Notes: generated by a model from the sequence alone, not told the origin. Positions 2,612 through 21,579 are shown, numbered from the stretch's first letter. The stretch: 47,759 nt of DNA from Actinomycetota bacterium (GCA_030838265.1 JAUTXA010000070.1:1-47759); one strand, 5' to 3'. Numbers and translations are program-made.

Positions 2612-2669
2612 TGGGTCTTTCTCCCTCTCTGTTGGTGTTGCAGTCGGGCAAGTCGCCCTAACCACATCT

Positions 2670-4075: not shown

Positions 4076-4100
4076 GGCGCAACGCTAGCCTCGCCCCACC

Positions 4101-6480: not shown

Positions 6481-6508
6481 GGTGGGGGTCACGGTAGCGT
6501 CCCCGCCG

Positions 6509-7480
6509 ATGCCGGCCGTGGTGGTTTCGGGACTGGTCGTGCGCTACGACGACGTGGTCGCCGTCGATGACCTGTCCTTCACGGCCGAGGCCGGCCAGAT
6601 CGTCGCCCTGCTCGGTCCCAACGGCGCCGGCAAGACGTCGACAGTCGAGACGCTCGAGGGCTACCGCCGGCCCACCGCGGGGACGGTGCGGGTGCTGGGT
6701 CTCGACCCGGTTGGCGACCACTCGAGCCTCGTCCCTCGCATCGGGGTCATGCTCCAGCGGGGCGGCATCTACCCGGCGATGTCCCCCGCCGAGGCCCTCG
6801 ATCTGTTCGCCGCCTACTACGCCAACCCGGCTGATCCGGCCGACCTCACCAGCCTCCTCGGCCTCGATGGCGTGGCCCGCACCCCGTGGCGTCGCCTGTC
6901 GGGCGGGGAGCAGCAGCGCCTCTCGCTGGCCCTGGCCCTCGTGGGCCGGCCCGAGGTGGCCTTCCTCGACGAGCCCACGGCTGGCGTCGACCCCCAGGGT
7001 CGGCTGGCCATTCGCCGGATCATCGCCTCGCAACGCGACGACGGCGTCTGCGTCCTGCTCACCACCCACGACCTCGAAGAGGCCGAGCGCCTGGCCGACC
7101 GCATCGTCATCGTCGACCACGGCAAGGTGGTGGCCGAGGGCTCGCCGGCCGAGCTCATGACCTCGGGCCGGAGCCACGAGATCCGCTTCGGCGCCCCCGC
7201 CGGCCTCGACCGCTCGAGCCTGGCCGCCGCGCTCGGGGCTTCCGTCGACGAGGAGCGGCCCGGCGAGTACCGGGTGGCGGCCGAGGCTTCGCCGGCCAAC
7301 GTCGCGGCCCTCACCGCCTGGCTCGCCCTGCACGACCTGCCCCTTGCCGACCTGCGGGCTGGTCGGCAGCGCCTCGAAGACGTCTTCCTGTCGCTCACCG
7401 CATCGGTCAGCACCGCCGCCGTCGAGCGCCAGCCCCGTCCCCGGCGGCGCTCCTCGTCGACCGGAGGCGCCGGCTCGTGA
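6509..7480 (+). CDS. ABC transporter ATP-binding protein (DrrA/ABC-2 exporter type)
   Basis: Track ORF 6272..7480 trimmed to MPAVVVSGLVVRYDD. The upstream part overlaps serS antisense. Walker A GPNGAGKTS, signature LSGGEQQR, Walker B AFLDEPTAG. Confidence 0.85.
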   Translation: MPAVVVSGLVVRYDDVVAVDDLSFTAEAGQIVALLGPNGAGKTSTVETLEGYRRPTAGTVRVLGLDPVGDHSSLVPRIGVMLQRGGIYPAMSPAEALDLFAAYYANPADPADLTSLLGLDGVARTPWRRLSGGEQQRLSLALALVGRPEVAFLDEPTAGVDPQGRLAIRRIIASQRDDGVCVLLTTHDLEEAERLADRIVIVDHGKVVAEGSPAELMTSGRSHEIRFGAPAGLDRSSLAAALGASVDEERPGEYRVAAEASPANVAALTAWLALHDLPLADLRAGRQRLEDVFLSLTASVSTAAVERQPRPRRRSSSTGGAGS

Positions 7481-8202
7481 AGGCGCTGCTGGCCCAAGCC
7501 CGCGCCGAGGTCGCCATGACCTTGCGCCGGGGCGAGTCCCTGCTGCTGGCCCTCGGGATCCCCGTGATCCTCCTGGTCTTCTTCTCGGTCGTCGACATCC
7601 TCCCCACCCCGGCCGGGACCAAGCGCGCCGTCGACTTCCTCGCTCCCGGGATCCTGGCCCTCGCCGTGATGTCGACGGGCATGGTCAGCCTCGGCATCGC
7701 CACTGCGTTCGAGCGTCAGTACCTCGTCCTCAAGCGGCTGGGCTCGACCCCGCTCGGTCGACCCGCTCTGCTGGCGGCCAAGACGGGAGCCGTCGTCGTC
7801 GTCGAGCTGGTGCAGGTGATCGCCCTCACCGCGGTCGCATTGGCGCTGGGGTGGCGCGCCCACCCCTCGGCGGCGACCGCGGTGGCGGCCGTCATCGTCG
7901 CCACCGTCGCGTTCAGCGGGCTCGGGCTGCTCATGGCCGGCACCCTGAAGGCCGAGCTGACTCTGGCCGCGGCCAACGGCCTCTACCTCGTGCTCCTGCT
8001 GCTCGGCGGCATGGTCGTCCCTTTGTCCCGGCTTCCCGGCGGGCTGCGCGCCCTGGCCCGCCTCCTTCCCGCCGCCGCCCTCTCGGACGTCCTCCGCCAA
8101 GGCTTGGGCGGACCGTCGGCTTACCGCGGGGCTTGGCTGGTGCTGGTCGCGTGGGCCGTCGTCGCCCCGGTGGCCGCCGCCCTCACGTTCCGCTGGGAGT
8201 GA
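7477..8202 (+). CDS. ABC-2 type transporter permease
   Basis: GTG at 7477 overlaps the ATPase TGA (GTGA). 241-aa, six-TM hydrophobic protein typical of ABC-2 permeases. Confidence 0.8.
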   Translation: MKALLAQARAEVAMTLRRGESLLLALGIPVILLVFFSVVDILPTPAGTKRAVDFLAPGILALAVMSTGMVSLGIATAFERQYLVLKRLGSTPLGRPALLAAKTGAVVVVELVQVIALTAVALALGWRAHPSAATAVAAVIVATVAFSGLGLLMAGTLKAELTLAAANGLYLVLLLLGGMVVPLSRLPGGLRALARLLPAAALSDVLRQGLGGPSAYRGAWLVLVAWAVVAPVAAALTFRWE

Positions 8203-8211
8203 CCGCGGCCG

Positions 8212-8694
8212 TCAGCGGGCTGACGCCAGCAGCGCGGCGAGATCCTTGGCGTGCAGCTCACCCAGATGCCGACCCGTCACCTTGCCGCTCGGCGAGATGA
8301 CCACGGTGACGGGAACGCCCTGGCCGATGCCGTAGGCCCGCAGCAGTCTGCCGCTCGGGTCCTTGAGGGCGGGCCAGGTGGCGTGCTCAGCCCGCATGAA
8401 GTCGGACGCCGGGACATCGCCGTCGCGGACGATGACCCCGAGCACGGCGACCGAGCCGTGATTGGCGGTCCGGAGCAGCGGGAACTCGCGCCGGCAGGGC
8501 TCGCACCACGAGGCCCAGAAGTTGAGCAAGACGGTCCGGCCCCGGTACCCGGCCAGCGCGACCCGTTTTCCGTCGAGGCTCTCGGCCACGAAGACGGGCG
8601 CGGGCTGGCCCACCGCCCCCGGGCTGGGCTTTGACGAGTCGGTGATGATGACGAGGCCGATGATGATGGCGATGGCCACCACCGCGCCGGCCAC
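8212..8694 (-). CDS. membrane-anchored TlpA/ResA-like thiol:disulfide oxidoreductase
   Basis: N-terminal TM (AGAVVAIAIIIGLVIIT). Thioredoxin fold with WASWCEPCRREFP (CxxC). Last gene of the oxidase operon. Confidence 0.8.
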   Translation of the reverse strand: MAGAVVAIAIIIGLVIITDSSKPSPGAVGQPAPVFVAESLDGKRVALAGYRGRTVLLNFWASWCEPCRREFPLLRTANHGSVAVLGVIVRDGDVPASDFMRAEHATWPALKDPSGRLLRAYGIGQGVPVTVVISPSGKVTGRHLGELHAKDLAALLASAR

Positions 8695-8711
8695 GGCGAC
8701 CAGGGTGCGCT

Positions 8712-9581
8712 TCAGGGGATCGGGTTCGTCTGGGCCAGCTCACGCTCGACGTCGGCCCAGGTAAGGGTGGCGGGGTCGCCCTGCTGCGACTGGCCGTACC
8801 ACTTGAAGAAGGTGATGAAGATGAGCGTCCAGAGGATGATCCCGCCGCCGACCTTCATCATGGCCCCCGCCAGCTGCTGATCATCGAGGACGCCGAGGGC
8901 GAACGGCCGCGGGACGTGGCCGTAGAACTTGTAGACGGGGTGCTCGGCGAAGGTGAGGAACGATGCCGGGACGGTGGGGATCAGCGACTGCAGGAAGAGG
9001 TACACCATCCGCATCGGGTACCCGAGCCGAGGCAGCTCGGGCAGGAGGTTGAAGACCGGCAACCACATGAGCATGGCGGTGCTGAACGACAGGAGGTGCA
9101 CACCGAAGTGGAGCGGCTCGCTGCGTAGGGCGGCGTCGACCAGGGCGGGCCAGTGGGTGAAGGCCAGGACCACGTTGAAGATGACGCCGGCCGCGATGGG
9201 GCGTCCCAGCCGGCGCACGACGGCGTAGACCCGGGGCGGGCGTACGACCAGCCACCGGACCAGCCAGTCCGGCGTGCCGCGGATGAGCAGCGGCGGCGCC
9301 ACGAGGGTCATGACCATGTGCTGGAACATGTGCACGCTGAACAGGTAGCGCTCGGCGATGTCGTGGATGGGCCACTCCGACACGGCCCAGAGGAGCACGA
9401 CGCCCGTGAGGAAGACCGCGACCTGACGCCGGGTTGCGATCGCCTCGCCGGGCCCGACGAGGCGGGTGCCCAGCCGCCGCAGGGCCGTGAAGTAGAGCCC
9501 GAGGACGGTGACGAAGAGGATGGCCACCTCGGGGTGAGCGTGCCAGGCCCAGGGGTCGACGGCCCGAGTGGCGGCCAGCAC
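8712..9581 (-). CDS. ctaG: cytochrome c oxidase assembly factor CtaG (Bacillus caa3_CtaG type)
   Basis: C-terminal 289 aa of track ORF 8712..10103. In-frame GTG at 9581, 2 nt after the subunit IV stop. Polytopic, with HMFQHMVMTLVAPPLL and HFGVHLL motifs typical of the family. Confidence 0.75.
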   Translation of the reverse strand: MLAATRAVDPWAWHAHPEVAILFVTVLGLYFTALRRLGTRLVGPGEAIATRRQVAVFLTGVVLLWAVSEWPIHDIAERYLFSVHMFQHMVMTLVAPPLLIRGTPDWLVRWLVVRPPRVYAVVRRLGRPIAAGVIFNVVLAFTHWPALVDAALRSEPLHFGVHLLSFSTAMLMWLPVFNLLPELPRLGYPMRMVYLFLQSLIPTVPASFLTFAEHPVYKFYGHVPRPFALGVLDDQQLAGAMMKVGGGIILWTLIFITFFKWYGQSQQGDPATLTWADVERELAQTNPIP

Positions 9582-9583
9582 GG

Positions 9584-9910
9584 CTAGAAGGCCAGGACGC
9601 CGAGGGTGAACATGACCGCGACGTAGACGGCGGCAGCCAGGATGATCCCGGTGACGAAGAAGCGGCGGAGGACCTTGTTGTCGAACTTGAGGTGCATGAA
9701 GAACATGGCGACCAAGGCGAACTTGGTGGCGGCCAGCACCAGCAACAACGGGTTGGCGGCGCTGCCCAAGCGGTGGGCGTATGAGACCGCCACCTCGATG
9801 GCGGTCAGCACGCCGAGGACGAGGGCGATGATGATGTAGCGGCTCTCGCTGGGGTGGGCGCCATGCTCGCCCGCGCCGTGGACGACCTCGGTGGTTTCGG
9901 TGGTCGTCAA
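9584..9910 (-). CDS. small cytochrome c oxidase subunit IV (prokaryotic COX4 family)
   Basis: C-terminal 108 aa of track ORF 9584..10672. TTG at 9910 overlaps the ctaE TGA (TTGA). Three TM helices and the FFMHLKFD motif. Confidence 0.7.
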   Translation of the reverse strand: MTTTETTEVVHGAGEHGAHPSESRYIIIALVLGVLTAIEVAVSYAHRLGSAANPLLLVLAATKFALVAMFFMHLKFDNKVLRRFFVTGIILAAAVYVAVMFTLGVLAF

Positions 9911-10554
9911 TGGACGTACCCGTGCGTCGGTGATGGGATGAGGTACACGACGGTGAAGAGGATGATCCAGACGACGTCGACGAAGTGCCAGTAAAGGCCC
10001 GCGATCTCGACGACCTCTGACTTCTCCTGCGGGAGCTTGCCGCGGATCGACAGGCTCCAGAGCGACAGCAGCATGACGATGCCGAGGGTGACGTGGACCC
10101 CATGGAAGCCGGTCAACACGAAGAAGCTGCTGCCGAACAGGTTGGTCTTGATGGTCAGCCCCTCGCGGATGAACGAGGTGAACTCGTAGACCTGTCCGGC
10201 AATGAACGACGAGCCCAGGAGGGCGGTCGCGAGGATCCACAACCGGAAGCGGCGGTGGTCGCCCCGCTGGATGGCGGCGAGGGCCAGCACCATGGTGAGC
10301 GAGCTCATGAGCAGCACGAACGAGCTCACTGAGGTGTAGGGGATGTTGTAGATGTCCTTCGGGTACGGGGGCACGACGCTGCGGCCCCGGTACAGGAAGT
10401 AGGTCGAGATCAGGGCCCCGAACAGGAGGCACTCGGACCCGAGGAAGGCCCACATGGCCATCTTCTCGTTGGAGACGCCCGTGTTGGTGACGTGACCGTG
10501 TTCGGGCCCAGGCGCGGCGTGCTCGTCGACGACGGTGGAGGCGTGCTCGGACAT
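9907..10554 (-). CDS. ctaE: cytochrome c oxidase subunit III
   Basis: 215 aa and 5 TM helices. Motifs FFVLTGFHGVHVTLG and GLYWHFVDVVW. GGAGGGGGAG RBS lies inside the ctaD 3' end. Confidence 0.9.
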   Translation of the reverse strand: MSEHASTVVDEHAAPGPEHGHVTNTGVSNEKMAMWAFLGSECLLFGALISTYFLYRGRSVVPPYPKDIYNIPYTSVSSFVLLMSSLTMVLALAAIQRGDHRRFRLWILATALLGSSFIAGQVYEFTSFIREGLTIKTNLFGSSFFVLTGFHGVHVTLGIVMLLSLWSLSIRGKLPQEKSEVVEIAGLYWHFVDVVWIILFTVVYLIPSPTHGYVH

Positions 10555-10556
10555 CG

Positions 10557-12593
10557 CTACTCCCCCTCCTGGCTCGGAGTGGCGTCGGTCGCCGTCGGTT
10601 CGGCCGGCTCGGCGTCGGGCCCGGGGCCCGCACCGAGAGCAGGTGCGGTCGCGCCGACCAGCTCGGCGGCATCGGCCGGGCCGTGATCGTCGTCAGGGTC
10701 GTGGGGCTCAGCCGAGGGTTCGAGGGCCCAGGCGTAGAGGCCGCCGAGGAGCCAGACGGCTCCGAAGATCGCCACCAGCCACACCCGGTAGGTCATGCCG
10801 TACGCCATGATCGGCAGGCCGGTAGCCGCCACCAGTGGGAAGTACGAGGGCGACGGCAGGTGGATGCTGTGGGGGTCGATGTCGCTGGGCGGCGCCTCGC
10901 TCACGGACAGCTTCACCAGGCGACCGCTGTCGTCCTCGGTGTACTTCTGATGCCAGAAGTCGTCGAGGGAGTGGACGACGGGAACCTCGAGGAAGTTGTA
11001 ATCGGGGACGGGCGACGGGAGGGTCCACTCGAGGGTGCGGCCGTCCCACGGGTCATTCGGCGCGCCGACGGGTTGGCGCCGGGTGACGACCAGAGCGTTG
11101 TAGAGGAAGACGAGGACCGAGACCATGATGATGAAGGCGCCGATGGTCGACATCATGTTGAGCCAACCGACCCCGAGGGCCTTGTCGTAGGTGTAGATGC
11201 GCCGGGGCATCCCCTGTAGGCCGATGAGGTGCATGGGGCCGAAGGTGAGGTTGAAGCCGATGAACCACAGCCAGAAGTGGATCTTGCCCAGCCCCTCGTC
11301 GAGCAGACGGCCGAAGACCTTGGGGTACCAGTAGTAGGTGCCGCCCATGATCCCGAACAGAGCGCCGCCGAACAGGACGTAATGGAAGTGGGCCACCACG
11401 TAGTAGGTGTCGGTCTGCTGGCGGTCGTGGGGGGAGACAGCGTGGGTGACGCCCGAGAGGCCGCCAATGGTGAACATGGCCACGAACCCGACCGCGAACA
11501 GCATGGCCGTCGTGAACTTGATCGAGCCGCCCCACATGGTGCCGATCCAGTTGAAGATCTTCACCCCCGTGGGCACGGCGATGAACATGGTCGAGATCGA
11601 GAAGGCCGAGACGGCAACAGGGCCGAGGCCGGTGGCGAACATGTGGTGCACCCACACGCCCCATCCCATGAAGCCGATGGCCACGCCCGAGATCACCATG
11701 ACCGGATACCCGAACAACGGCTTTCGGGAGAACACGGGGAGGATCTCCGAGACCATGCCCATGGCTGGCAGGATGAGGATGTACACCTCTGGGTGACCGA
11801 AGAGCCAGAACAGGTGCTGCCACAGCAACGGGTCACCGCCCGCCGCTGGGTTGAAGAAGTTGGCCCCGAAGAGACGGTCGAACATCAGCAGGAACAGGGC
11901 CACGGTGATGATCGGCATGGCGAACATCATCAGGAATGATGTGACAAGGGCCATCCAGATGAAGATCGGCATCTTCATCAACGTCATGCCCGGGGCCCGC
12001 ATGTTGAGGATGGTGATGATGAAGTTGATCGAGCCGACCGTCGAGGCGATGCCGAGGATCTGCAGCCCAAAGACCCAGAAGTCGATGTTGTGGCCGGGCG
12101 AGAAGGTGATGCTGGTGTTCGGGGCGTAGCCGAACCACCCACCGTTCGGTGCCCCGCCCAGGACGAAGCTCGAGTTGATGAACAAGGCGCCGCAGAGGAA
12201 AGTCCAGTAGCTGAATGCGTTCAGCCGAGGGAAGGCGACGTCGCGAGCGCCGATCATCAGCGGGATCAGGTAGTTGAAGAAGGCCGTGGTGATCGGCATG
12301 ACGACGAGGAAGATCATCGTCGTGCCGTGCATGGTGAAGACCTGGTTGTAGGCGTCGGCGGAAAGGATGGTGCCGTTGGGCTGGGCCAGCTGCAGCCGGA
12401 TGAGCAGGGCCTCGGAGCCGCCCACGAGGAAGAAGATGAAGGCGGTGACGCCGTAGAGGATGCCGATCTTCTTGTGGTCGACGGTCGTGACCCAGCCCCA
12501 GAACCCGGTTGTCGCCTTGGGCCGGCGCATGAGAGCCGGCTCGCGGGGCACGGGTGTCGCTTCGATGGTGGTGGGCTCGAGGACGGTTGCCAT
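10557..12593 (-). CDS. ctaD: cytochrome c oxidase subunit I (A-type), with a C-terminal two-TM and acidic tail extension
   Basis: All canonical ligand motifs present: TMHGTTMIF, WLFGHPEVYILILP, VWVHHMFATG, VAHFHYVLFGG, GMPRR. ATG start with GGAG RBS. Confidence 0.95.
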   Translation of the reverse strand: MATVLEPTTIEATPVPREPALMRRPKATTGFWGWVTTVDHKKIGILYGVTAFIFFLVGGSEALLIRLQLAQPNGTILSADAYNQVFTMHGTTMIFLVVMPITTAFFNYLIPLMIGARDVAFPRLNAFSYWTFLCGALFINSSFVLGGAPNGGWFGYAPNTSITFSPGHNIDFWVFGLQILGIASTVGSINFIITILNMRAPGMTLMKMPIFIWMALVTSFLMMFAMPIITVALFLLMFDRLFGANFFNPAAGGDPLLWQHLFWLFGHPEVYILILPAMGMVSEILPVFSRKPLFGYPVMVISGVAIGFMGWGVWVHHMFATGLGPVAVSAFSISTMFIAVPTGVKIFNWIGTMWGGSIKFTTAMLFAVGFVAMFTIGGLSGVTHAVSPHDRQQTDTYYVVAHFHYVLFGGALFGIMGGTYYWYPKVFGRLLDEGLGKIHFWLWFIGFNLTFGPMHLIGLQGMPRRIYTYDKALGVGWLNMMSTIGAFIIMVSVLVFLYNALVVTRRQPVGAPNDPWDGRTLEWTLPSPVPDYNFLEVPVVHSLDDFWHQKYTEDDSGRLVKLSVSEAPPSDIDPHSIHLPSPSYFPLVAATGLPIMAYGMTYRVWLVAIFGAVWLLGGLYAWALEPSAEPHDPDDDHGPADAAELVGATAPALGAGPGPDAEPAEPTATDATPSQEGE

Positions 12594-12610
12594 TCAGCGT
12601 TCTCCGTACA

Positions 12611-13651
12611 TCACTTGAGGCTGTCGAGGTAGGCGATGAGCTTGGTGATCTCGTCCTCGCTCAGGTGCAGATTCGGCATGCCCAGCCCCTTGTTGGGGTT
12701 CATCGGCTTCATGGCGGGCGGGTTGCGCAGCCACTTGCGGAGCATCTCGTCGTTGTTGTCGAAGATGTAACCGGCGAAGCGCGCTCGGGAGTTGAAATGG
12801 GTCAGGTTCGGGCCTACGAGACCGGCACTGTACCCGTCGACCGTGTGGCAGCCGCTGCAGCCCTTGGACCGGAACAGGGCGGCCCCGGCGGCGGCGTCAC
12901 CCGTCACCGGGAGAGCGGCTGCCGTGGTCTGGTCGGCCACCCATGTGTCGAAGTCGGCCTGGCTGTCGGCAATCACCCGAAGGCGCATGTTGGCGTGCGA
13001 CAGCCCGCAGAACTCGGCGCATTGGCCGAAGAAGTTCCCGGGGGCGTCGGCCTCGATGACCATGTGATTGGTGCGGCCGGGGATGACGTCGACCTTGCCC
13101 GCCAGCTTCGGAGGCCAGAAGGAGTGGATGACGTCGGTCGAGGTCATCTTGATGGCGACCTTCTTGCCCGCCGGGATGTGCAGCTCGTTGGCCGTGGTGA
13201 TCTTGTACTGGGGATACTTGAACTCCCACCACCACTGGTGGCCGATCACGTCGACCTGGACGACGTCGGGTCCCTTGGGCTGCTGGTCGAGGAAGAACAG
13301 GTTGGCCAGGGTGAAGATGCCGACGCCGAGCAGGAGGACGGCGGGGACGACCGTCCAGGTCAGCTCGAGCTTGGCGCTGCCGTGGACCTGCACCGGCGCC
13401 TCGTCGTCGGAGCGACGGCGGAAGCGGATGGCGGCGTAGATGACGAGGCCCTGCACCAGGACGAAGAAGAAGGCGGCGATGAGGAAGACGGGGTTGATCA
13501 GGTGCTCGAGCCGCCGGGCAATCGGTCCCTGAGGATGGCTGAGCACGTCCTGAGGCATCGTCTCCCGGGCGCAGCCCGTGGCGAGGAGCAACAGGGCGAG
13601 CACGGCGGCGCCGAGCCGGGCGCGGCGCGCGGGCGTGGGGGACAACCTCAT
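12611..13651 (-). CDS. ctaC: cytochrome c oxidase subunit II with fused C-terminal cytochrome c domain (caa3 type), lipoprotein
   Basis: C-terminal 346 aa of track ORF 12611..14407. Lipobox LLATGC. CuA motif HSFW...CAEFCGLSHANM. Heme c motif CSGCH. The ATG overlaps the stop of the upstream cupredoxin gene. Confidence 0.9.
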   Translation of the reverse strand: MRLSPTPARRARLGAAVLALLLLATGCARETMPQDVLSHPQGPIARRLEHLINPVFLIAAFFFVLVQGLVIYAAIRFRRRSDDEAPVQVHGSAKLELTWTVVPAVLLLGVGIFTLANLFFLDQQPKGPDVVQVDVIGHQWWWEFKYPQYKITTANELHIPAGKKVAIKMTSTDVIHSFWPPKLAGKVDVIPGRTNHMVIEADAPGNFFGQCAEFCGLSHANMRLRVIADSQADFDTWVADQTTAAALPVTGDAAAGAALFRSKGCSGCHTVDGYSAGLVGPNLTHFNSRARFAGYIFDNNDEMLRKWLRNPPAMKPMNPNKGLGMPNLHLSEDEITKLIAYLDSLK

Positions 13652-14655
13652 CGGATGACGAACTCGCCCTTCATCGAGGAGTGGAAGTCGCAGACGTACA
13701 CGTAGGTGCCGGGACCAGGCGTGGTGAAGCGATACACCGCCCGGCCGTGGTCGATGGGCCGGCCGTTGAAGATGGGCTTCCCCTTGGTGTCCTGGCTCGT
13801 GTACACGGCCCAGTTGTGGAATGTGCCGGTGTCCTTGTTGGTGAAGTCGACCTCGACCTGCTCGTCGGCGGCGAAGGTGATCACGGCGTCGCTGGGCACC
13901 ACGAAGGCCGTGTTCAGAGCGACGACATCCTGCTCCGGGGTCTCGACCTTGTGCTCGTTGACGATCTTGCGCTCGCCGGCGGCGGCGAAGCTCACTCCGG
14001 CCACGGCCACCACGACGAAGGCGGCGGCCGCGAAGCCCGTCAACGCCGCGGAGGTGAGGCGGGGTCGAGCCGCGATCACAAAGAAGGTGGTGAGGACCAG
14101 CGCGCCCACAACGATGAACGTCACCGTGGCGGCCTGTTCGGGGATGTGGAGCAGGACGCGGGAGACGCCGATGGCGATGAAGGCGGCGACGAGGAAGGCG
14201 CCGACCGGGAGGGCGACGGGGGCCACCAGGCGGTTGCCCACCGCAGCGCTGTTCCGAGGGGTGAAGCTGTGGTGCTCCCGCCAGGCCTGACCTGTCCAGC
14301 CCAGACCGGCGATGAAGGCGATGATGAGCCCGGCGATCAGGGCCGGAGCACCAACGACCGTCGTCACAGCCAGCACGGCGGCCGAGGCGGCGAGGACAAG
14401 GGGCCACGGGCTGGCGCCGGCCGCCGCGGTCGGAGACACCGGGCGACGGTCGGGGGGCGCATCGGCGGTGACGTAGGGCTCGAGGTCCTGGCCCGCCGTC
14501 GCCGTCACGGCCAAGGCGATCACCAGAGCACCGAGGGCCAGACCGAAGAAGATCAGCTCACCCTGTCGGTCGCCAGTCGTCGCCCGGTAGCCCAGGGCGG
14601 TCGCCAAAGCGAAGCCGGCGAGGGCGAAGTAGAGCTTGCTGGCGAGGCTGAACAA
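13648..14655 (-). CDS. polytopic (about 7 TM) membrane protein with C-terminal type-1 (blue) copper cupredoxin domain
   Basis: C-terminal 335 aa of track ORF 13648..15261. TTG at 14655 is preceded by GGGAG at 7 nt. Amicyanin/halocyanin-like ligand pattern FHNW ... YVCDFHSSMKGEFVI (H280, C322, H325, M328, numbered from the TTG). Confidence 0.7.
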   Translation of the reverse strand: MFSLASKLYFALAGFALATALGYRATTGDRQGELIFFGLALGALVIALAVTATAGQDLEPYVTADAPPDRRPVSPTAAAGASPWPLVLAASAAVLAVTTVVGAPALIAGLIIAFIAGLGWTGQAWREHHSFTPRNSAAVGNRLVAPVALPVGAFLVAAFIAIGVSRVLLHIPEQAATVTFIVVGALVLTTFFVIAARPRLTSAALTGFAAAAFVVVAVAGVSFAAAGERKIVNEHKVETPEQDVVALNTAFVVPSDAVITFAADEQVEVDFTNKDTGTFHNWAVYTSQDTKGKPIFNGRPIDHGRAVYRFTTPGPGTYVYVCDFHSSMKGEFVIR

Positions 14656-14666
14656 GGACCGGCTCC

Positions 14667-15251
14667 CTACTTGTGCTGGAAGACGTAGAGGGCGAAGAAG
14701 GCGAGGACGAAGCTGGCCACGACGAAGTGCCAATACCACGTGGCGGCCCGAGCCAGCTCGGGGTCGCCCGTCGTGACCTGATGGGCCAGCGTGCGGCTCA
14801 AGGCCACCACGATGACGATGAGGCCGATGAAGATGTGCACGCCCATGGCGATGAGCAGGGCCCAGAACATCGTCCCGTAGGCATGGGTCGCGGGGCCGAA
14901 GCCGAGGCGGTTGCCCACGTACCAGACGAGGTTGAGTGACGAGAGGGCGAACACGATCGTCAGCACCGAGCCCGTGATCGACTGGCTGCGGTTGCCCTTC
15001 GCCAGCGAGAACGCCGCCCACTCGGCCGTGAAGGCCGACATGAGCATGGTGACGACGAGCATGCTGCCCGGGTAGTTGTCGAGCTTGACGCCCTTCGGCG
15101 GCCACGTCTTGGCCAGGGCCCGGGCATCGAAGTAGACGGCGAACAGAGCGACGAAGGCGACCAGGCTTGCCGCGCCCAGGAGCAACATGGCCAGGTTCAC
15201 CAGGTTCCGGGGGCGATCGTGGCCGGCTGCCGGCAGCGCCAGCTGCGACAT
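14667..15251 (-). CDS. heme-copper oxidase subunit III-like paralog
   Basis: C-terminal 194 aa of track ORF 14667..15740. The ATG overlaps the stop of the upstream gene (ATGA). Five TM helices. Matches the CtaE in this window: FWALLIAMGVHIFIG versus FFVLTGFHGVHVTLG, and ATWYWHFVVASF versus GLYWHFVDVVW. Confidence 0.75.
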   Translation of the reverse strand: MSQLALPAAGHDRPRNLVNLAMLLLGAASLVAFVALFAVYFDARALAKTWPPKGVKLDNYPGSMLVVTMLMSAFTAEWAAFSLAKGNRSQSITGSVLTIVFALSSLNLVWYVGNRLGFGPATHAYGTMFWALLIAMGVHIFIGLIVIVVALSRTLAHQVTTGDPELARAATWYWHFVVASFVLAFFALYVFQHK

Positions 15252-16888
15252 CAGGCGGCACCTCCCGTCGGGGCCGAGCGCACGTCGAGCAGCGGTGTCT
15301 CCGACCGCACCTCGGGAATGAAGTCGAAGTTGTGGGCGGGCGGCGGCGACGAGGTTGCCCATTCGAGGGTCAGTCCCTCCCACGGGTCGTCCTCCGCGAC
15401 CTCGCCCCGGCCCATGGCCACGCTCGTCAGCAGGTTGACGAGGAAGAGCAGGGCTCCCACCGCGACGAGCACGCCACCCGCCGACGCCAGTCTCTCGAGG
15501 TTCACCCAGCCGCCCTTGGGCCCGGTGTCGGCCACGTGCCAGGGGGCGCCGTCGTAGCCCAGCAGGTAGGAGGCCAGACCCATGATCAGGAACCCGCCGA
15601 CGAGGGCCAAGGCCTGGAGGATGCCGATGCCCTGGTTGAGGTGGCGGCCCCAGAGCTTGGGGGCCCAGTGGTAGACGGCGGCGAAGGCCAACAAGGTGGG
15701 GGCGCCGAAGATGACCACGTGGAGGTGGCCGGTCGACCACGCCGTGCCGCCGTCGACCTTATTGATGGCGGCGACGGCAACGTTGGCCGCCCCGAAAAGG
15801 AGGAGAGCCAGGGCACACGCGACGTAGACGAGCGTGACGTGCAGCCGCACATCGCCGAAGCGCAGGGTGCCGAGCCAGACCAGTGCGATCACCGCCACCG
15901 GGAGCGCGACCAGGCCGGTGAGGCCGGAGTAGGTCGGCAGGACAACCGAGCTCTGGACGGACATGCCGGCCGCCAACGACCCCAGCGAGAGCACGGCGAA
16001 GGCGGCGATCGAGATGCGCACCGGCATCGAGGCCAACAGGCCACGCCGGGCGTGGGTCGTGACGATGTCGCTGGCCGCCCCGAGGGCCGGGAGCAGCAGC
16101 AAGAAGGCGTCGGGCCGCCCGAACAGCCAAAGCGTGTGCTGCCACGTGATCTGGGCGACCGGGTTGGTCGGGGCGAAGAACGATCCGCCGAAGTGCTGGT
16201 CGAGGTAGAGAAGGAGGAGCCCGGCCACGAACACCGGCGTGGTCAGGAGGCTGATGGTCGCCGTCCACAGGGTCGCCCACGTGAACAGGGGCAGGCGGCC
16301 GAACGTCATGCCTTCGGTGCGGAGCAAGGCGATGGTCACGATCAGGTTCGCCGAGGCCAGCAACGTGGCGATGGCGAGGATGATCAGCCCGGCGATCAGG
16401 AGGTTGGTGCCGTGGTTGGCCGGCCCCTGGGCGGTGATCGGAGTGCTGAGACCCAAGCCCATCCCGGCCGGCCGGTCGACGATGTAGGCGGCGACGACCA
16501 CGCCGCCGCCGGCCAGGAACGACCAAAAGGCGGCCGCCTGGAGGCGAGGCAGAGCCAGGCGGGGAGCCCCGATCTGCAACGGGACGAGATAGGTGGCCAG
16601 CCCGAGCCAGAGCGGCGAGAGGAAGAGCATGGTCATGACCGTGGCGTGCATCGACAGGATGCGGCCGTAGTCGTTGCCCACGATCTGGACGCCCTGCCCG
16701 GCCAGCTCGATGCGCATGACCACGCCAAGGGTCACGCCGACCAGCAGGAACACGATCGAGGCCCCCAGGTAGAGGAGGCCAACCCGCTTGTGGTCAGCGG
16801 TCGTCAGCCAGTTGCCACGGGCCACCGACTGGGGTGCACCGGGCGCCTGGTTCTCGATGTGGTCGGGACGCGTCTCGGTGAGCGTCAT
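15251..16888 (-). CDS. heme-copper oxidase subunit I-like paralog lacking the CuB ligands
   Basis: 545-aa, 12-TM ORF with ATG and AGGAAGG RBS. Aligns by eye with CtaD along its length (WLTTADHKRVGLLY, SMHATVM, WQHTLWLFGRPDAFLLLLP, GHLHVVIFG, DPWEGLTLEW). The canonical HPEVY is RPDAF, and no HH pair is present in helix VII. Confidence 0.8.
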   Translation of the reverse strand: MTLTETRPDHIENQAPGAPQSVARGNWLTTADHKRVGLLYLGASIVFLLVGVTLGVVMRIELAGQGVQIVGNDYGRILSMHATVMTMLFLSPLWLGLATYLVPLQIGAPRLALPRLQAAAFWSFLAGGGVVVAAYIVDRPAGMGLGLSTPITAQGPANHGTNLLIAGLIILAIATLLASANLIVTIALLRTEGMTFGRLPLFTWATLWTATISLLTTPVFVAGLLLLYLDQHFGGSFFAPTNPVAQITWQHTLWLFGRPDAFLLLLPALGAASDIVTTHARRGLLASMPVRISIAAFAVLSLGSLAAGMSVQSSVVLPTYSGLTGLVALPVAVIALVWLGTLRFGDVRLHVTLVYVACALALLLFGAANVAVAAINKVDGGTAWSTGHLHVVIFGAPTLLAFAAVYHWAPKLWGRHLNQGIGILQALALVGGFLIMGLASYLLGYDGAPWHVADTGPKGGWVNLERLASAGGVLVAVGALLFLVNLLTSVAMGRGEVAEDDPWEGLTLEWATSSPPPAHNFDFIPEVRSETPLLDVRSAPTGGAA

Positions 16889-16965
16889 CGGCCTTCCTGA
16901 AGAGGCGGACAGGGCGGCAGCACTCTAGACACCACCGGCGCTCGGTTTCGACTTCGCTCCGTGCC

Positions 16966-17853
16966 TCATCGGACGAGCTGGTCGACAGCCATGGCCGCGA
17001 AGAGCAGGGTCACGTACGAGATGGAGTAGCTGAAGAGGCGCATGGCCTGCTTCGGGGTGGCCGTGCGCTGGAGGCGAACGGCGTACAGGACGAAGATGGC
17101 GCCCAGGATCACAGCCGCTGACGTGTAGATCAGACCCATGCCCGCGATCGGGCTGAAGATCAGCGAGGTGGCCCACAGGATGACCGTGTAGATCACGATC
17201 TGGCGGGCGGTGCGGGCGAAGGTGGCCACCACCGGCAGCATGGGGACCTCGGCCGCCGCGTAGTCCTCGCGGTAGCGGATGGCCAGGGCCCAGAAGTGGG
17301 GCGGCGTCCAGACGAAGATGATGGCGAAGAGCACGAGTGGGGCCAGTGACAGCGAGTTGCGCACCGCGGCCCACCCCACGAGGACCGGTACGGCGCCGGC
17401 GGCGCCGCCGATGACGATGTTGTGGGTGGACGTGCGCTTGAGCCACAGGGTGTAGACGAACACGTAGAAGAGGGTGGCGCTGAGGGCGAGGATGGCGCTG
17501 AGGAAGTTCACGAGCAGCCAGAGCTCAACGAAGGCGGCGATTTCGAGGGCGATGGCGAACACCAACGCCGGTGTCGGCTCGAGTGCACCCGTCACGAGGG
17601 GCCGGCCCTGCGTCCGCTTCATGAGCTTGTCGATGTCGCGATCGACGTACATGTTGATGGCGTTGGCACCGCCCGCCGCGAGGGTGCCCCCGACGAGGGT
17701 GACGAGCATGAGCCACAGCGATGGCAGACCCCGCTTGGCCACGACCATGGTCGGCAGCGTGGTGACGAGCAGAAGCTCGATGATGCGGGGCTTGGTGAGC
17801 GCCACATAGGCCGACAGGCGGCTGGAGATCGCAGGCGCCGCGGTCTGAGACAT
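16966..17853 (-). CDS. ctaB: protoheme IX farnesyltransferase (heme O synthase)
   Basis: 295-aa UbiA-family polytopic protein. Motifs YVALTKPRIIELLLVTT, NMYVDRDIDKLMKRT and WTPPHFWALA. Confidence 0.9.
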   Translation of the reverse strand: MSQTAAPAISSRLSAYVALTKPRIIELLLVTTLPTMVVAKRGLPSLWLMLVTLVGGTLAAGGANAINMYVDRDIDKLMKRTQGRPLVTGALEPTPALVFAIALEIAAFVELWLLVNFLSAILALSATLFYVFVYTLWLKRTSTHNIVIGGAAGAVPVLVGWAAVRNSLSLAPLVLFAIIFVWTPPHFWALAIRYREDYAAAEVPMLPVVATFARTARQIVIYTVILWATSLIFSPIAGMGLIYTSAAVILGAIFVLYAVRLQRTATPKQAMRLFSYSISYVTLLFAAMAVDQLVR

Positions 17854-17900
17854 CGGCGCCGACTCTACGGCTGCCCACCCCCCGGAGCCAAAGCACTCCG

Positions 17901-18878
17901 ATGGCTGGTCAGCGGCGACCCGGCCGTAGCATCGGCGACGCCATGCCCACCCTGACGCCTTCCGCCTTCCGGCGCCTCACCCTGGCGGTCGTCGCCCTGG
18001 TGGCCGTGATCATCGTGACGGGGGCGGCGGTGCGTCTGACCGGCTCTGGTTTGGGGTGCCCCAACTGGCCCACGTGCGACGGTCATCACATCGTCGATCC
18101 AGCGGCCAGTCACAAAGGCATCGAATCGATCAACCGGGCCATCACCGGTCTGGTGTCGGTCGTGGTCATCCTCTCGGTGCTCGGGTCGCTCCGTCGCGTC
18201 CCCCGTCGGCGCGATCTCGTCTGGCTCTCGCTCGGCCTCGTCGCCGGGGTGGTGGCCCAGATCGTCCTGGGCGGACTCGTCGTGATCTTCCACCTCTATC
18301 CGCCGTTGGTGATGGGCCATCTGGTTCTGTCGATGCTGTTGCTGGCCGACGCCGTCGTCCTGCATCACCGAGCGCGGCTTCCTGATGACGAGCCGGTCGG
18401 CCCCGCCGTGGCGGGCGACGTGGCCACGTTGACCAAGCTCTTGGTCGGCTGGGCCGCCCTGGTCATCGTCCTGGGCACTGTCGTGACCGGCGCCGGACCC
18501 CATGCGGGCAGCAACAAGGACCGGCTGGTCGAGCGCCTGCCGATCGCAGTCCACGATGCGGCCCGCTTCCATGGCACCGCGGTCGTCCTCTTCCTGGTGT
18601 TCGTGCTGCTGACCATCTGGCGCCTGCGCGCCGAAGGGGCTCCCCGGTCGGTGCTGGGGCGGGCGGAGCTTCTCCTCGTCGCCCTGGTGACCCAGGCCGC
18701 GGTGGGCTACACGCAGTACTTCACGGGTGTCCCGGTCGTCTTGGTCGGCGTCCATGTGGCCGGCGCCGACGCCGTCTGGGCTGCGGTGCTCTGGCTGGCG
18801 CTGGGGACCAACCAGACGGTCGTGCCAGTGGCGTCGACGCAGGCGAGAGCGACCGGTGAGGTAGCAGTCGCGGGCTGA
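17901..18878 (+). CDS. ctaA: heme A synthase (COX15/CtaA family)
   Basis: Polytopic protein with RLTGSGLGCPNWPTCDG and paired His-containing helices. Divergent from ctaB. The start could instead be the ATG at 17943 (MPTLTPSAF). Confidence 0.85.
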   Translation: MAGQRRPGRSIGDAMPTLTPSAFRRLTLAVVALVAVIIVTGAAVRLTGSGLGCPNWPTCDGHHIVDPAASHKGIESINRAITGLVSVVVILSVLGSLRRVPRRRDLVWLSLGLVAGVVAQIVLGGLVVIFHLYPPLVMGHLVLSMLLLADAVVLHHRARLPDDEPVGPAVAGDVATLTKLLVGWAALVIVLGTVVTGAGPHAGSNKDRLVERLPIAVHDAARFHGTAVVLFLVFVLLTIWRLRAEGAPRSVLGRAELLLVALVTQAAVGYTQYFTGVPVVLVGVHVAGADAVWAAVLWLALGTNQTVVPVASTQARATGEVAVAG

Positions 18879-18893
18879 CAGACTGGCGGGGCC

Positions 18894-19187
18894 ATGACCG
18901 CGCCGATGCCCGTCGAGACCGAGCGCCCCGACGTCGACGAGGTCGTCGAGCCCGACCGGCCCTGGCTGGTCATCGTGTGGAACGACCCGATCAACCTCAT
19001 GTCGTACGTGGCCTTCGTGTTCCAGAAGCTGTTCGGTTACTCGAAGGAGAAGGCCAACAAGCTGATGATGGACGTCCACCTGAAGGGTCGGGCTGTGGTG
19101 TCGAGCGGGACGCGGGAGCGAGCCGAGCTCGACGTCTTCCGCCTCCATGAACACGGCCTCTGGGCGACGATGGAGCAGAGCTCGTGA
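18894..19187 (+). CDS. clpS: ATP-dependent Clp protease adaptor ClpS
   Basis: 97 aa. Diagnostic core [46 protein letters not shown]. Confidence 0.9.
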
Positions 19188-19251
19188 TGCGACCCAATAG
19201 TGCGGAGCAGAGCTCGTGATGCGACCCGATGAAGCAGAGCAGAGCTCATGA
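19172..19251 (+). repeat. 32-bp tandem repeat, about 2.5 copies, spanning the clpS stop and the DUF2017 start
   Basis: GGAGCAGAGCTCGTGATGCGACCC occurs identically at 19172-19195 and 19204-19227. A third partial copy, AGCAGAGCTCATGA, lies at 19238-19251. Period is 32 nt. Confidence 0.85.
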
Positions 19252-19712
19252 GCTTTGTCGGGCCCATCGGGCGGAACCGCGATGGGTCGTTCAAGCTGCG
19301 GCTGGGGCCACAGGAGCGCGAGCTGCTGCGGACACTGCCGGGCCAGCTCCTCGAGCTGTTCGGCAGCGCCGACCCCTCGCTGCGACGCCTCTTCCCACCC
19401 GCCTACACCGATGACGCCGAGCGGGAGGCCGAGTACCAGCGGTTCATGGCCGACGACCTCGAAGCCCGCCACCGGGCCGCCCTTGAGATCCTCGCCAACA
19501 CGGCTGACAACCCCCGCCTCGACGAGGAAGAGCTGACGGCGTGGATGGGCGCCCTCAACGACCTCCGGCTGGTGCTCGGCACCCGCATCGACGTGCAAGA
19601 GGACATGGTCGACATCGACGACGATGATCCCAACGCCCCCGCCCTCCATCTCTATGGGTATCTGACCTACCTGCAGAGCGAGGTCATCGATGCCCTCGCC
19701 AGCGGGCTCTGA
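19248..19712 (+). CDS. DUF2017-like protein (conserved actinobacterial clpS neighbour)
   Basis: 154-aa acidic protein directly after clpS. Sequence (LFPPAYTDDAEREAEYQRF..., WMGALNDLRLVLGTRIDV) matches my recollection of DUF2017. Not verified against a database. Confidence 0.65.
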   Translation: MSFVGPIGRNRDGSFKLRLGPQERELLRTLPGQLLELFGSADPSLRRLFPPAYTDDAEREAEYQRFMADDLEARHRAALEILANTADNPRLDEEELTAWMGALNDLRLVLGTRIDVQEDMVDIDDDDPNAPALHLYGYLTYLQSEVIDALASGL

Positions 19713-19731
19713 CCGGGTAAGGAGGCAAGCC

Positions 19732-21579
19732 ATGTCACGGACACGTCTCTCGTTGTTGGCCATGGCAGTCGTGGCCGCCACTGTTCTGCTACCGGTCGAG
19801 GCGGCCCGGGCGGTGCCGAAGCGGTCGGTGGCCACGAGCGGCTTCGTCCTCAACGGGCGCGGCCAGCTCACCCGGTACGCGGCGGGCGAGTCCACACCCC
19901 CCGGCGTCACCAACGCCCCAACGTGGGGATTCGACATCGCGCGGGGCATCGCTACCTACCAGTCGGGCACCGGCGGCGTCGTCCTCGACGGGTACGGCGG
20001 GGTCCACGGGTTCGGCTTCACCGGCACGGGCCGCGGCGCCGATGCCCGACGCACCCCCTACTGGAACGGCTGGGACATTGCGAGGGGGGTGGCGCTGCTG
20101 CCTGACGGCTCGGGCGGCTATGTCCTCGACGGTTACGGCGGGCTCCACCCCTTTGCCGTCGGCCCGAACGCCGTGCCGCCGCCAGCCAATGGCGGGGCCT
20201 ACTGGAGCGGTTGGGACATCGCCCGCGGCATCGCCCTGCTGCCTGACGGCTCGGGCGGCTATGTCCTCGACGGGTACGGCGGGCTGCACCCGTTCGGCGT
20301 CGGGACCCACGCTCCGGCACCCGCCGCCAGTGGTGGGGCCTACTGGAGTGGGTGGGACGTGGCGTCCGACATCACACTGCTGGCCGACGGCAGCGGCGGG
20401 TACATCCTCGATCGCTACGGGCCCCTCCACGGCTTTGCCACCACCAATCCGGTGGTCCCGGCATCACCCACGACGACCGGCTATCCCGCGGGTGATGCCC
20501 AAGGCGTGGCGACCTACGTCCACCCGACGGCAGCCGCCCCGTCGATCACCGTGACCTCGGCGGTGACAGGCCTCGACATCCCGTGGGATCTGGCCTTCGC
20601 CCCCGACGGCACCATGATCTTCACTGAGCGAGGCGGGCGCCTCAGCGCCCGGGTCGGCACCACCACTGTGATGATGGCCGACGCCCCCAACGTCTATGCC
20701 ACGGGAGAAGCCGGTCTGCTAGGCCTCGCCCTCGACCCCGACTACGCCACCAACCGCCTGCTCTACGCCTGCCAGAGCTACAGCAACGGCTCGACCAACG
20801 ATGTCCGGGTGCTCGTCTGGCACGTGGCCGACGACTATTCGTCGGCCACGGTCGTCACCAACCCACTGGTGGGCGGCCTGCCCCTCAACACCACGACCTT
20901 CCCCGGCCGCCACAGTGGTTGTCGGCCCCGCTTCGGACCCGACGGCTACCTGTGGATCGGCACCGGTGACACCGGCGTCGGCACCAACCCCCAGTCGCTG
21001 ACGTCGCTCGGCGGCAAGGTGCTGCGGGTGAGCAAGACCACAGGCGCGGCCGCGCCCGACAACCCCTTCTCGGGGGCGAGCGCCCGCATCTACAGCTACG
21101 GCCACCGCAACGTCCAGGGCATGGCGTGGCGGCCGGGGACGACACAGATGTTCAACGTCGAGCATGGCCCCGACATCGACGACGAGGTCAACCTCCAGGT
21201 GCGCGGGGCCAACTACGGATGGGACCCCATCCCTGGCTACAACGAGGGCGTCCCCATGACCGACTTCGCCAAGTTCCCCAGCGCGGTCGGCGCGGTCTGG
21301 AGCTCGGGCAGTCCCACGGTGGCCACGTCCGGCGGCACCTTCCTGTCGGGCTCGGCCTGGGGGGCTTGGAACGGCGCTCTCGCCGTGGCCTGCCTCAAGG
21401 GCAGCCAGCTCATGGTGTTCGGGCTCAATCCGGCCGGCACGGTGGTCACGCGGGAGGACAGCGTCATCAAGGACAAGGGCCGGCTGCGCACCCCGGTGCT
21501 CGGACCAGACGGGAATCTCTACATCGCGACCGGCAACGGTGGTGGCAACGACGTGATCTTGAAGGTCGTGCCCGGCTAG
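19732..21579 (+). CDS. secreted PQQ-dependent sugar (glucose/sorbosone) dehydrogenase-like beta-propeller with N-terminal 47-aa repeat array
   Basis: ATG at 19732 with strong AAGGAGG RBS at 19718-19725. Signal peptide MSRTRLSLLAMAVVAATVLLPVEAARA. C-terminal domain carries GSDH-type motifs (LDIPWDLAFAPDG, GEAGLLGLALDPDY, GGKVLRV, YSYGHRNVQGMAW, GPDIDDEVN, GANYGWDP). Confidence 0.8.
   Translation: MSRTRLSLLAMAVVAATVLLPVEAARAVPKRSVATSGFVLNGRGQLTRYAAGESTPPGVTNAPTWGFDIARGIATYQSGTGGVVLDGYGGVHGFGFTGTGRGADARRTPYWNGWDIARGVALLPDGSGGYVLDGYGGLHPFAVGPNAVPPPANGGAYWSGWDIARGIALLPDGSGGYVLDGYGGLHPFGVGTHAPAPAASGGAYWSGWDVASDITLLADGSGGYILDRYGPLHGFATTNPVVPASPTTTGYPAGDAQGVATYVHPTAAAPSITVTSAVTGLDIPWDLAFAPDGTMIFTERGGRLSARVGTTTVMMADAPNVYATGEAGLLGLALDPDYATNRLLYACQSYSNGSTNDVRVLVWHVADDYSSATVVTNPLVGGLPLNTTTFPGRHSGCRPRFGPDGYLWIGTGDTGVGTNPQSLTSLGGKVLRVSKTTGAAAPDNPFSGASARIYSYGHRNVQGMAWRPGTTQMFNVEHGPDIDDEVNLQVRGANYGWDPIPGYNEGVPMTDFAKFPSAVGAVWSSGSPTVATSGGTFLSGSAWGAWNGALAVACLKGSQLMVFGLNPAGTVVTREDSVIKDKGRLRTPVLGPDGNLYIATGNGGGNDVILKVVPG
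19924..20440 (+). repeat. in-frame 141-bp (47-aa) tandem coding repeats, about 4 copies
   Basis: Protein repeats W(N/S)GWD(I/V)A(R/S)(G/D)(I/V)(A/T)LL(P/A)DGSGGY(V/I)LD(G/R)YG(G/P)LH(P/G)F. The two central copies (about 20062-20202 and 20203-20343) are also near-identical at the DNA level. Confidence 0.8.

Follow-up and report, generated by a model that had tools for sequence, protein, structure and literature searches.

What is a second, seemingly inactive set of oxidase genes doing in front of a complete cytochrome c oxidase operon? The question is raised by a window of 47,759 nucleotides, i.e., the whole stretch of DNA analysed here (GCA_030838265.1; JAUTXA010000070.1:1-47759), which is a contig of a metagenome-assembled genome labelled Actinomycetota. 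On its minus strand, three adjoining genes, hereafter the trio, lie in front of the genes of a caa3-type oxidase. A preliminary description had recognized them as encoding a subunit I-like protein lacking CuB, a subunit III-like protein and a polytopic cupredoxin, and all three are intact minus-strand open reading frames with the boundaries it had given. The answer that we favor, with moderate confidence, is that the trio forms a non-catalytic pseudo-oxidase which would act as a structural partner of the caa3 oxidase and carry an optional copper/heme relay. The features concerned are:

15251-16888, minus strand: pseudo-subunit I, CtaD-like, 545 amino acids (the I-like protein); intact reading frame, PF00115
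14667-15251, minus strand: subunit III-like protein, CtaE-like, 194 amino acids, five-helix short form; intact reading frame, PF00510
13648-14655, minus strand: polytopic protein, 335 amino acids, TTG start; intact reading frame, seven predicted transmembrane helices and a C-terminal cupredoxin domain
14251-14655, minus strand: helices 1-4 of the polytopic protein (about residues 1-135), CtaF-like; PF12270 is the top Pfam match, sub-threshold
13966-14250, minus strand: helices 5-7 of the polytopic protein; family-invariant motifs, no known family matched
13648-13935, minus strand: predicted type-1 (blue) copper cupredoxin domain, ligands H280/C322/H325/M328; AlphaFold2, Foldseek and profile matches

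The I-like protein has kept the fold of an oxidase subunit I and lost the active site. It matches PF00115 (COX1) with an E value of 3.7e-72 over profile positions 1-435 of 436, and scores 357 bits against TIGR02891, about half of the equivalog cut-off of 670.75, which is exceeded by the CtaD encoded in the window (725 bits). With this CtaD it shares 32% identity in a pairwise alignment. AlphaFold2 predicts a 12-helix fold (predicted local distance difference test, pLDDT, 82.6; predicted template modelling score, pTM, 0.88) with the lowest confidence at about residues 301-330, the former His-His site. The eight best Foldseek matches of the model are CtaD chains of mycobacterial and corynebacterial III2IV2 supercomplexes, with template modelling (TM) scores of 0.87-0.88, including 0.87 to CtaD of Mycobacterium smegmatis. 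At the sequence level, the best PDB matches are also chains of actinobacterial supercomplexes (299-306 bits vs 260 for QoxB of Bacillus subtilis). In the alignment to the window CtaD, the CuB-binding His residues are replaced by R258, A307 and G308, the motif GHPEVY reads GRPDAF, and the HH pair reads AG. F262 stands where the cross-linked Tyr would be, and other residues likewise occupy the positions of the Lys of the K channel, the Asp of the D channel and the RR pair of heme-propionate Arg residues, while the three heme-binding His residues, H81 of helix II and H388 and H390 of the helix X HxH motif, are kept. As judged by these features, the I-like protein is a folded but catalytically dead oxidase subunit, predicted to be incapable of O2 or NO (nitric oxide) reduction. 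A reading as a quinol oxidase was dropped because the positions of the quinol site of E. coli bo3, which we take to be R71, D75, H98 and Q101, are not conserved when the alignment to the window CtaD is inspected by eye. An enzyme of the nitric oxide reductase (NOR) type was ruled out by the missing metal ligands at the three FeB/CuB-type positions. Public databases label the I-like genes "cytochrome c oxidase subunit I" or "cbb3-type subunit I". We also noted that the N-terminal peptide MTLTETRP (the first eight codons, window positions 16865-16888) is nearly invariant in 29 orthologs, within a segment for which AlphaFold predicts disorder (pLDDT about 42); a function as a short motif for interaction or targeting is conceivable.

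The loss of the CuB ligands characterizes the whole family. A word-indexed search gave more than 120 clusters at 50-85% identity, and gene order was taken from the contigs of ten related proteins (I-like proteins 36-85% identical), two species-genome loci, and 52 loci which a pattern specific for helix VI with the Arg substitution had picked out of metagenomes. All named relatives are from Acidimicrobiales, the taxonomy being that of the source names. When a genome collection was scanned with the full I-like alignment, canonical CtaD crowded the results and only two true relatives (L001 and L074) emerged, and the pattern LEWAT[STA]SPP turned out to be common to the I-like proteins and to real actinobacterial and Chloroflexota oxidases. 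The use of a helix VI sub-alignment removed this problem from the metagenome scan. Across the family the residues at the CuB positions are R, A/S and G/D; none of the three is His in 61 of 61 loci, and the first is Arg in 59. R258, H407 and W384 are among the many residues that are invariant and specific to the family. An exhaustive HMMER search extended the survey to 125 full-column representatives of 50%-identity clusters near the query; 58 of these lack any CuB His and 30 of the 58 also lack both His ligands of the low-spin heme, where the calls for distant representatives depend on the multiple alignment and were checked pairwise for P0176, P0183 and P0329 only. One deep-branching sub-lineage, 39% identical (L074, positions 6371-8068, with P0179, P0184 and P0187), has Tyr or Thr rather than Arg at the first CuB position (FWFAAYPTLW); its gene order is the same and its blue-copper domain is intact.

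The second member of the trio is also a paralog of an oxidase subunit. The III-like protein matches PF00510 (COX3) with an E value of 1.3e-16 (61.7 bits, cut-off 23.8), and remains under every NCBIfam equivalog cut-off, the best being aa3_CtaE_Actin (55.9 vs a cut-off of 190). Its best PDB sequences are CtaE of Mycobacterium tuberculosis and M. smegmatis, with QoxC of B. subtilis reaching only 24 bits. The real CtaE of the window, to which it is 25% identical, shows the opposite preference, matching QoxC at 137 bits.

The third member, the polytopic protein, is composite. Its seven predicted helices are followed by a beta-sandwich modelled by AlphaFold2 with pLDDT above 90. The Cupredoxin_1 match is sub-threshold (22.8 bits vs 27). 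A profile of the polytopic family has auracyanin A as its best PDB match (E value 3.2e-13), and the Foldseek matches are amicyanin and auracyanin, with only the cupredoxin domain aligning. The type-1 copper ligands H280, C322, H325 and M328 are present with a short C-x2-H-x2-M loop; across 42 orthologs C322, H325 and M328 are invariant and H280 is nearly so. These sequence and model matches identify the C-terminal domain as a type-1 copper cupredoxin with a predicted copper site, and the predicted topology would place it outside the membrane, next to the cytochrome c domain of CtaC. The N-terminal residues 1-135 have PF12270 (CtaF) as their top Pfam match, at 13.5 bits (E value 0.075). The corresponding segments of eight of ten orthologs match the same profile, which ranks first in seven, over profile positions 5-126 of 132; the best has an E value of 1.3e-5 (25.7 bits vs a cut-off of 26.9), and every match is sub-threshold. 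Three CtaF chains (E values 0.11-0.17) are the sole membrane proteins in the PDB that the family profile matches. Helices 5-7 contain the invariant motifs P146, P150, S165-R166-x-L-L and G227-E228-R229, which are kept also in orthologs without the cupredoxin domain. In a Pfam search the polytopic protein did not match PF00116, the CuA-binding subunit II. It has a single Cys and does not contain the binuclear motif H...C-x-E-x-C-x3-H-x2-M. Homology with subunit II was considered and rejected: hhalign aligns only the cupredoxin core with CtaC, at a probability of 54%, pairing H280/C322/H325/M328 with the CuA residues H176/C211/H219/M222 of CtaC, and the helices are dissimilar.

How much of the redox equipment is indispensable can be read from the orthologs. 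At the position of the high-spin heme ligand, H388, 57 loci have H in 23, Q in 22 and N in 9. Both His ligands of the low-spin heme have been lost in five lineages (L086, L087, L110, L132 and L136). The cupredoxin domain is absent from nine of 34 complete polytopic genes, whose products end shortly after helix 7, and no separate compensating cupredoxin gene was found in the fetched flanks of the loci with such a gene. In one further protein of the 34, that of L136, the domain is present with its ligands replaced by R/D/N/D. At this locus (Ga0247719_1000341, positions 6503-9743) the I-like protein also has H81 replaced by S, H388 by N and H390 by T, with all reading frames intact and syntenic; it is thus an intact trio without a single redox ligand. 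Judged from these sequences, the protein scaffold is conserved everywhere and the cofactors are optional. A stand-alone cupredoxin was seen in another locus, L082 (positions 19493-20014), just after the cta cluster: this 173-amino acid, lipoprotein-like protein, absent from the window, has a long Thr/Ser-rich linker and H...C-x2-H-x2-M ligands. A different ligand-less oxidase pair was found in another actinobacterial class (L145, positions 1845-4498; JGI 3300047110; a cluster including HWO49381.1, Solirubrobacterales). There, a 606-amino acid COX1-like protein without heme or CuB His residues is directly preceded by a COX2-like protein in which the CuA residues Cys/Cys/His are Ser/Ser/Tyr, and is followed by ctaB; the 90%-identity cluster of L145 has 62 members.

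The trio is tied to the caa3 genes by position and is maintained by selection. Its arrangement recurs in about 65 independent loci, i.e., in every locus long enough to show it, and in none of these was the trio found at any other position. The conserved order is ctaB, I-like, III-like, polytopic, (tlpA), ctaC, ctaD, ctaE, cox4 and ctaG, where the gene in brackets is variable, and DUF2017, ClpS and ctaA are on the opposite strand in every long-enough locus. This order holds even where the I-like proteins are only 36-41% identical to that of the window. No qcr genes were found within 10 kilobases in any locus examined. The reading frames of the trio are intact in the approximately 65 loci, at 35-85% identity. 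Relative to a genome whose I-like protein is 85% identical, the ratio of nonsynonymous to synonymous substitution rates (dN/dS) is 0.15 for the I-like, 0.135 for the III-like and 0.32 for the polytopic gene, and 0.105 for ctaD, 0.21 for ctaC, 0.14 for ctaG and 0.25 for the subunit IV gene. Because the values of the trio (0.14-0.32) are similar to those of the real subunits, its genes are functional and under purifying selection, and are not pseudogenes.

In the window, the trio belongs to a run of ten co-directional minus-strand genes (17853 to 8212), with ctaA divergent from it. The remaining genes of the region are:

16966-17853, minus strand: ctaB, heme O synthase, co-directional, 77 nucleotides upstream of the I-like gene; family matches
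12611-13651, minus strand: ctaC, caa3-type subunit II with CuA site and fused cytochrome c domain; family matches
10557-12593, minus strand: ctaD, canonical catalytic subunit I with all six His and a C-terminal two-helix extension; TIGR02891, 725 bits
9907-10554, minus strand: ctaE, real subunit III; family matches
9584-9910, minus strand: subunit IV, COX4_pro (Bacillus) type; family match
8712-9581, minus strand: ctaG, caa3-type copper insertion factor; family match
8212-8694, minus strand: TlpA/ResA-like thiol-disulfide oxidoreductase; family match
17901-18878, plus strand: ctaA, heme A synthase, divergent from the trio and ctaB

The spacing of these genes is close. A gap of 77 nucleotides separates ctaB from the I-like gene, which overlaps the III-like gene by one nucleotide (TGATG); the III-like and polytopic genes are separated by 11 nucleotides containing GGAG, and the start of ctaC overlaps the stop of the polytopic gene (ATGA). 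Downstream, there are gaps of 17 nucleotides between ctaC and ctaD and of 2 nucleotides between ctaD and ctaE, a TTGA overlap between ctaE and the subunit IV gene, a gap of 2 nucleotides before ctaG, and one of 17 nucleotides between ctaG and tlpA. In the preliminary description the first overlap within the trio had been given as a four-nucleotide ATGA, which is corrected here; every other junction that it listed is as it had reported. Its order of a nine-gene unit flanked by ctaB and ctaA also holds, with the amendment that the unit may comprise ten genes rather than nine because ctaB is co-directional; ctaB is probably the first gene of the unit. From the I-like gene to ctaC, the 1-nucleotide overlap, 11-nucleotide gap and ATGA overlap would amount to a stoichiometric-looking coupling of the trio into ctaC. 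A scan of positions 7800-18200 gave no promoter-like or terminator-like sites (shuffled sequences give 3.3 terminators), a null result by which a single transcript is neither proved nor disproved.

Several observations were made around the cluster. The C-terminal extension of the real CtaD (about 135 amino acids, 10557-10960), a pair of helices, matches the C-terminal half of PF12270 with an E value of 0.004 and is followed by an acidic, Pro/Ala-rich tail; CtaD of L143 likewise has a weak PF12270 match. The surroundings consist of housekeeping genes (ClpS, DUF2017, serS, an ABC transporter, malic enzyme, purF/purM). The ClpS and DUF2017 genes (window 18894-19712) adjoin ctaA in every locus examined, as a block conserved with the cta cluster. 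A 694-amino acid open reading frame on the minus strand (17865-19949), antisense to ctaA, ClpS and DUF2017 and without a family match, is most likely a spurious long frame of a kind common in DNA of 68% guanine plus cytosine. At 19690-21579 lies a protein of the glucose/sorbosone dehydrogenase family (PF07995) whose N-terminal extension of about 290 amino acids matches no Pfam family.

Among known systems, the core of the actinobacterial aa3 oxidase (CtaD, CtaE and CtaF, part of the obligate bcc-aa3 III2IV2 supercomplex of M. smegmatis, M. tuberculosis and Corynebacterium glutamicum) provides the best matches for the I-like and III-like proteins, and a weak resemblance to CtaF is seen in the four-helix unit at the start of the polytopic protein. 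In this core the equivalent of subunit III is divided between CtaE, with five helices, and CtaF as a protein of its own (PMC8361435), and the trio shows the same split into a five-helix CtaE-like and a CtaF-like part. Unlike this core, the trio lacks the CuB ligands, the proton channels and a CuA subunit, its heme ligands are optional in the family, its CtaF-like unit continues, in one polypeptide, into three additional helices and a type-1 copper domain, and it is encoded beside a second, complete caa3 oxidase. The copper domain resembles auracyanin, amicyanin and sulfocyanin in its fold, its H/C/H/M ligands and its short, amicyanin-like C-x2-H-x2-M loop. Auracyanin and sulfocyanin serve as electron carriers between a quinol-oxidising complex and a terminal oxidase. 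Whereas these proteins have a lipid or single-helix anchor, the domain of the trio is carried on seven helices of an oxidase-like subcomplex, and it is dispensable in about a quarter of orthologs. With the CuA subunit II (CtaC/CoxB) the polytopic protein shares an outward-facing cupredoxin domain that follows a hairpin of helices, but with a single Cys and without a C-x-E-x-C loop its predicted site is mononuclear. The cNOR, qNOR, eNOR, sNOR, gNOR and nNOR families are members of the heme-copper oxidase superfamily which lack the cross-linked Tyr and do not reduce O2; they are nevertheless enzymes, and keep a three-residue metal site (His3 or His2Asp) and the high-spin heme His (PMC11214002). 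The I-like protein, of the same superfamily, also lacks this Tyr, but differs in having non-ligands at all three metal positions and a variable heme ligand. A search of the full-text literature, with most subscription journals outside its reach, gave no description of the trio as a module. The standard classifier of heme-copper oxidases discarded sequences without the six metal-binding His residues (PMC3084760), and this rule may explain the lack of an earlier description. Thus, the proteins of the trio come from known superfamilies and, as a system, apparently represent an undescribed, pseudoenzyme version of complex IV.

These results suggest the following scheme. The trio would be a paralogous, degenerate copy of the membrane core of an actinobacterial aa3-type oxidase (CtaD-like, CtaE-like and CtaF-like), in which an auracyanin-like blue-copper domain on the CtaF-like protein takes the place of the CuA subunit. 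It would share a transcript with the real caa3 oxidase, and its products, as the homology to complex-forming subunits and the translational coupling suggest, most likely assemble into a stable membrane subcomplex. This subcomplex would be a structural partner of the caa3 oxidase, whether within a dimer or supercomplex or by offering a docking platform, and in the lineage of the window its predicted sites for one or more hemes and one type-1 copper might provide an electron path at the outer face that leads toward the CtaC cytochrome c domain. We infer from the sequences the existence of a single complex of the three proteins, its binding to caa3 or to a bc complex and any electron relay. The preliminary description had spoken of a parallel subunit set, and the three genes are indeed paralogs of oxidase subunits; its cupredoxin, however, is no equivalent of the CuA subunit II but an auracyanin/amicyanin-like type-1 domain on a seven-helix protein whose first four helices resemble CtaF. 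We agree with its view that independent respiration is unlikely, the I-like protein being without CuB ligands and predicted to be unable to reduce O2. Two of the outcomes which that description had named as refuting its proposal, absence of the trio from all relatives and CuB ligands in the I-like protein, were checked, and neither was observed. The accessory, non-respiratory role that it proposed is sensible, because the trio cannot be expected to reduce O2 and is conserved, selected and fixed before ctaC, as the common order of the approximately 65 loci confirms; electron entry or storage, also suggested there, is weakened as the conserved function by the orthologs without heme ligands, cupredoxin or both.

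Some points weigh against a structural partnership or against parts of the scheme. The tight coupling of the trio to ctaC is not universal, because in most relatives a thioredoxin-like (TlpA-like) gene lies between them, and the partners of the trio are assigned from gene order. A role in assembly would be equally compatible with the location of the trio, which lies between the genes for heme A synthesis and those for the structural subunits. The low-spin heme His pair is kept in 47 of 52 and in 52 of 57 loci, and all four copper ligands in 24 of the 34 complete polytopic genes; where these sites are present, redox function may be the main one. As to origin, descent from an actinobacterial aa3 oxidase is suggestive from the sequence matches, and a neighbour-joining tree resolved no donor lineage, the I-like clade and L074 standing apart from all canonical A-type sequences. 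The CtaF similarity of the polytopic protein is below the Pfam threshold, and a CtaF-like C-terminal hairpin is present also in the real CtaD of the window.

Four other explanations were considered. The trio might be an assembly platform, a surrogate oxidase on which heme A, copper or both are handled, or CtaC and CtaD are matured, before insertion into the real enzyme. Its place between ctaA/ctaB and the structural genes, the TlpA-like redoxin directly after it in most loci, ctaG and one further redoxin gene at the end of the cluster, and the bis-His heme site and cupredoxin copper site kept in most lineages would all suit such a role. Nevertheless, three large membrane proteins (about 1070 amino acids in total) with equimolar-type coupling would be unusual for a chaperone, the copper site is of an electron-transfer type nearest to auracyanin and amicyanin and not a known chaperone motif, and lineages that lack the heme ligands, the cupredoxin or both have kept the module; we consider this explanation unlikely. 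The same optional cofactors bear on the idea of a dedicated electron-transfer module, in which blue copper and low-spin heme form a wire that feeds caa3, or links it to another donor or acceptor in the manner of auracyanin or sulfocyanin, the membrane part being more than an anchor. The window has the full set of four copper ligands, which vary little or not at all among 42 orthologs, together with the three heme His residues, auracyanin is the best PDB match, and the predicted topology sets the domain outside, beside the cytochrome c domain of CtaC. However, syntenic orthologs dispense with the cupredoxin (nine of 34) or with heme ligands (five lineages) and have no substitute cupredoxin gene, and no acceptor site is apparent past the heme, with neither CuB nor, by eye and with the assumed numbering, quinol-site residues like those of bo3. 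This module is, in our judgement, rather improbable.

The progressive and lineage-specific loss of every cofactor ligand might instead betray a decaying duplicate, i.e., a functionless relic of an old duplication of the oxidase operon. This explanation is strongly disfavored, and we regard it as very improbable, given the intact reading frames in about 65 loci at 35-85% identity, dN/dS ratios equal to those of bona fide subunits, the many invariant, family-specific residues such as R258, H407 and W384, and the fixed gene order. An unconventional enzyme with a heme-only pocket around Arg258, engaged for instance in NO or peroxide chemistry or in gas sensing, would account for the proximal His of the high-spin heme in the lineage of the window and for the invariant Arg in the place of CuB. 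Yet the proximal His is found in only 23 of 57 loci (with Q in 22 and N in 9), some lineages have no heme ligands at all, the proton channels are absent, and the metal ligands that define NOR enzymes (PMC11214002) are missing, which makes such an activity highly unlikely. The structural partnership with the caa3 oxidase is the reading that we retain.

A more specific version of this partnership can be proposed. The contacts of complex IV with complex III of M. smegmatis are formed mainly by CtaE and CtaF (PMC8361435), and a role of the trio as an adaptor toward the bc complex is attractive because subunits of these two types have been retained. By analogy, a pseudo-complex IV might dock the bcc complex, i.e., the menaquinol:cytochrome c reductase, through its CtaE/CtaF-type surface and hold the caa3 oxidase beside it, with the blue copper, in lineages that have it, passing electrons from the diheme QcrC to the cytochrome c domain of CtaC. 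We hold this version to be doubtful. If true, it would mean a three-part supercomplex built around a dead oxidase paralog, and a respiratory terminal oxidase would for the first time be known in a pseudoenzyme form.

Heme-copper oxidases rank with the most thoroughly studied membrane enzymes. Independently of the mechanism, the family amounts to a broad and conserved group of subunit I-like proteins that lack the metal-binding His residues by which the superfamily has been defined; they have matching III- and IV-like partners, and in this lineage the trio is in every case encoded beside a working caa3 oxidase and the genes for its biogenesis. Because of the misleading "subunit I" annotation of the I-like genes, metagenomic surveys count too many oxidases. 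Metagenomes from soil, freshwater and the sea contain Acidimicrobiia in abundance. If the proteins of the trio are structural partners of the caa3 oxidase, they would show how respiratory complexes recruit dead paralogs, and would provide a handle on how the Acidimicrobiia wire a cytochrome c-fused oxidase to their quinol oxidase.

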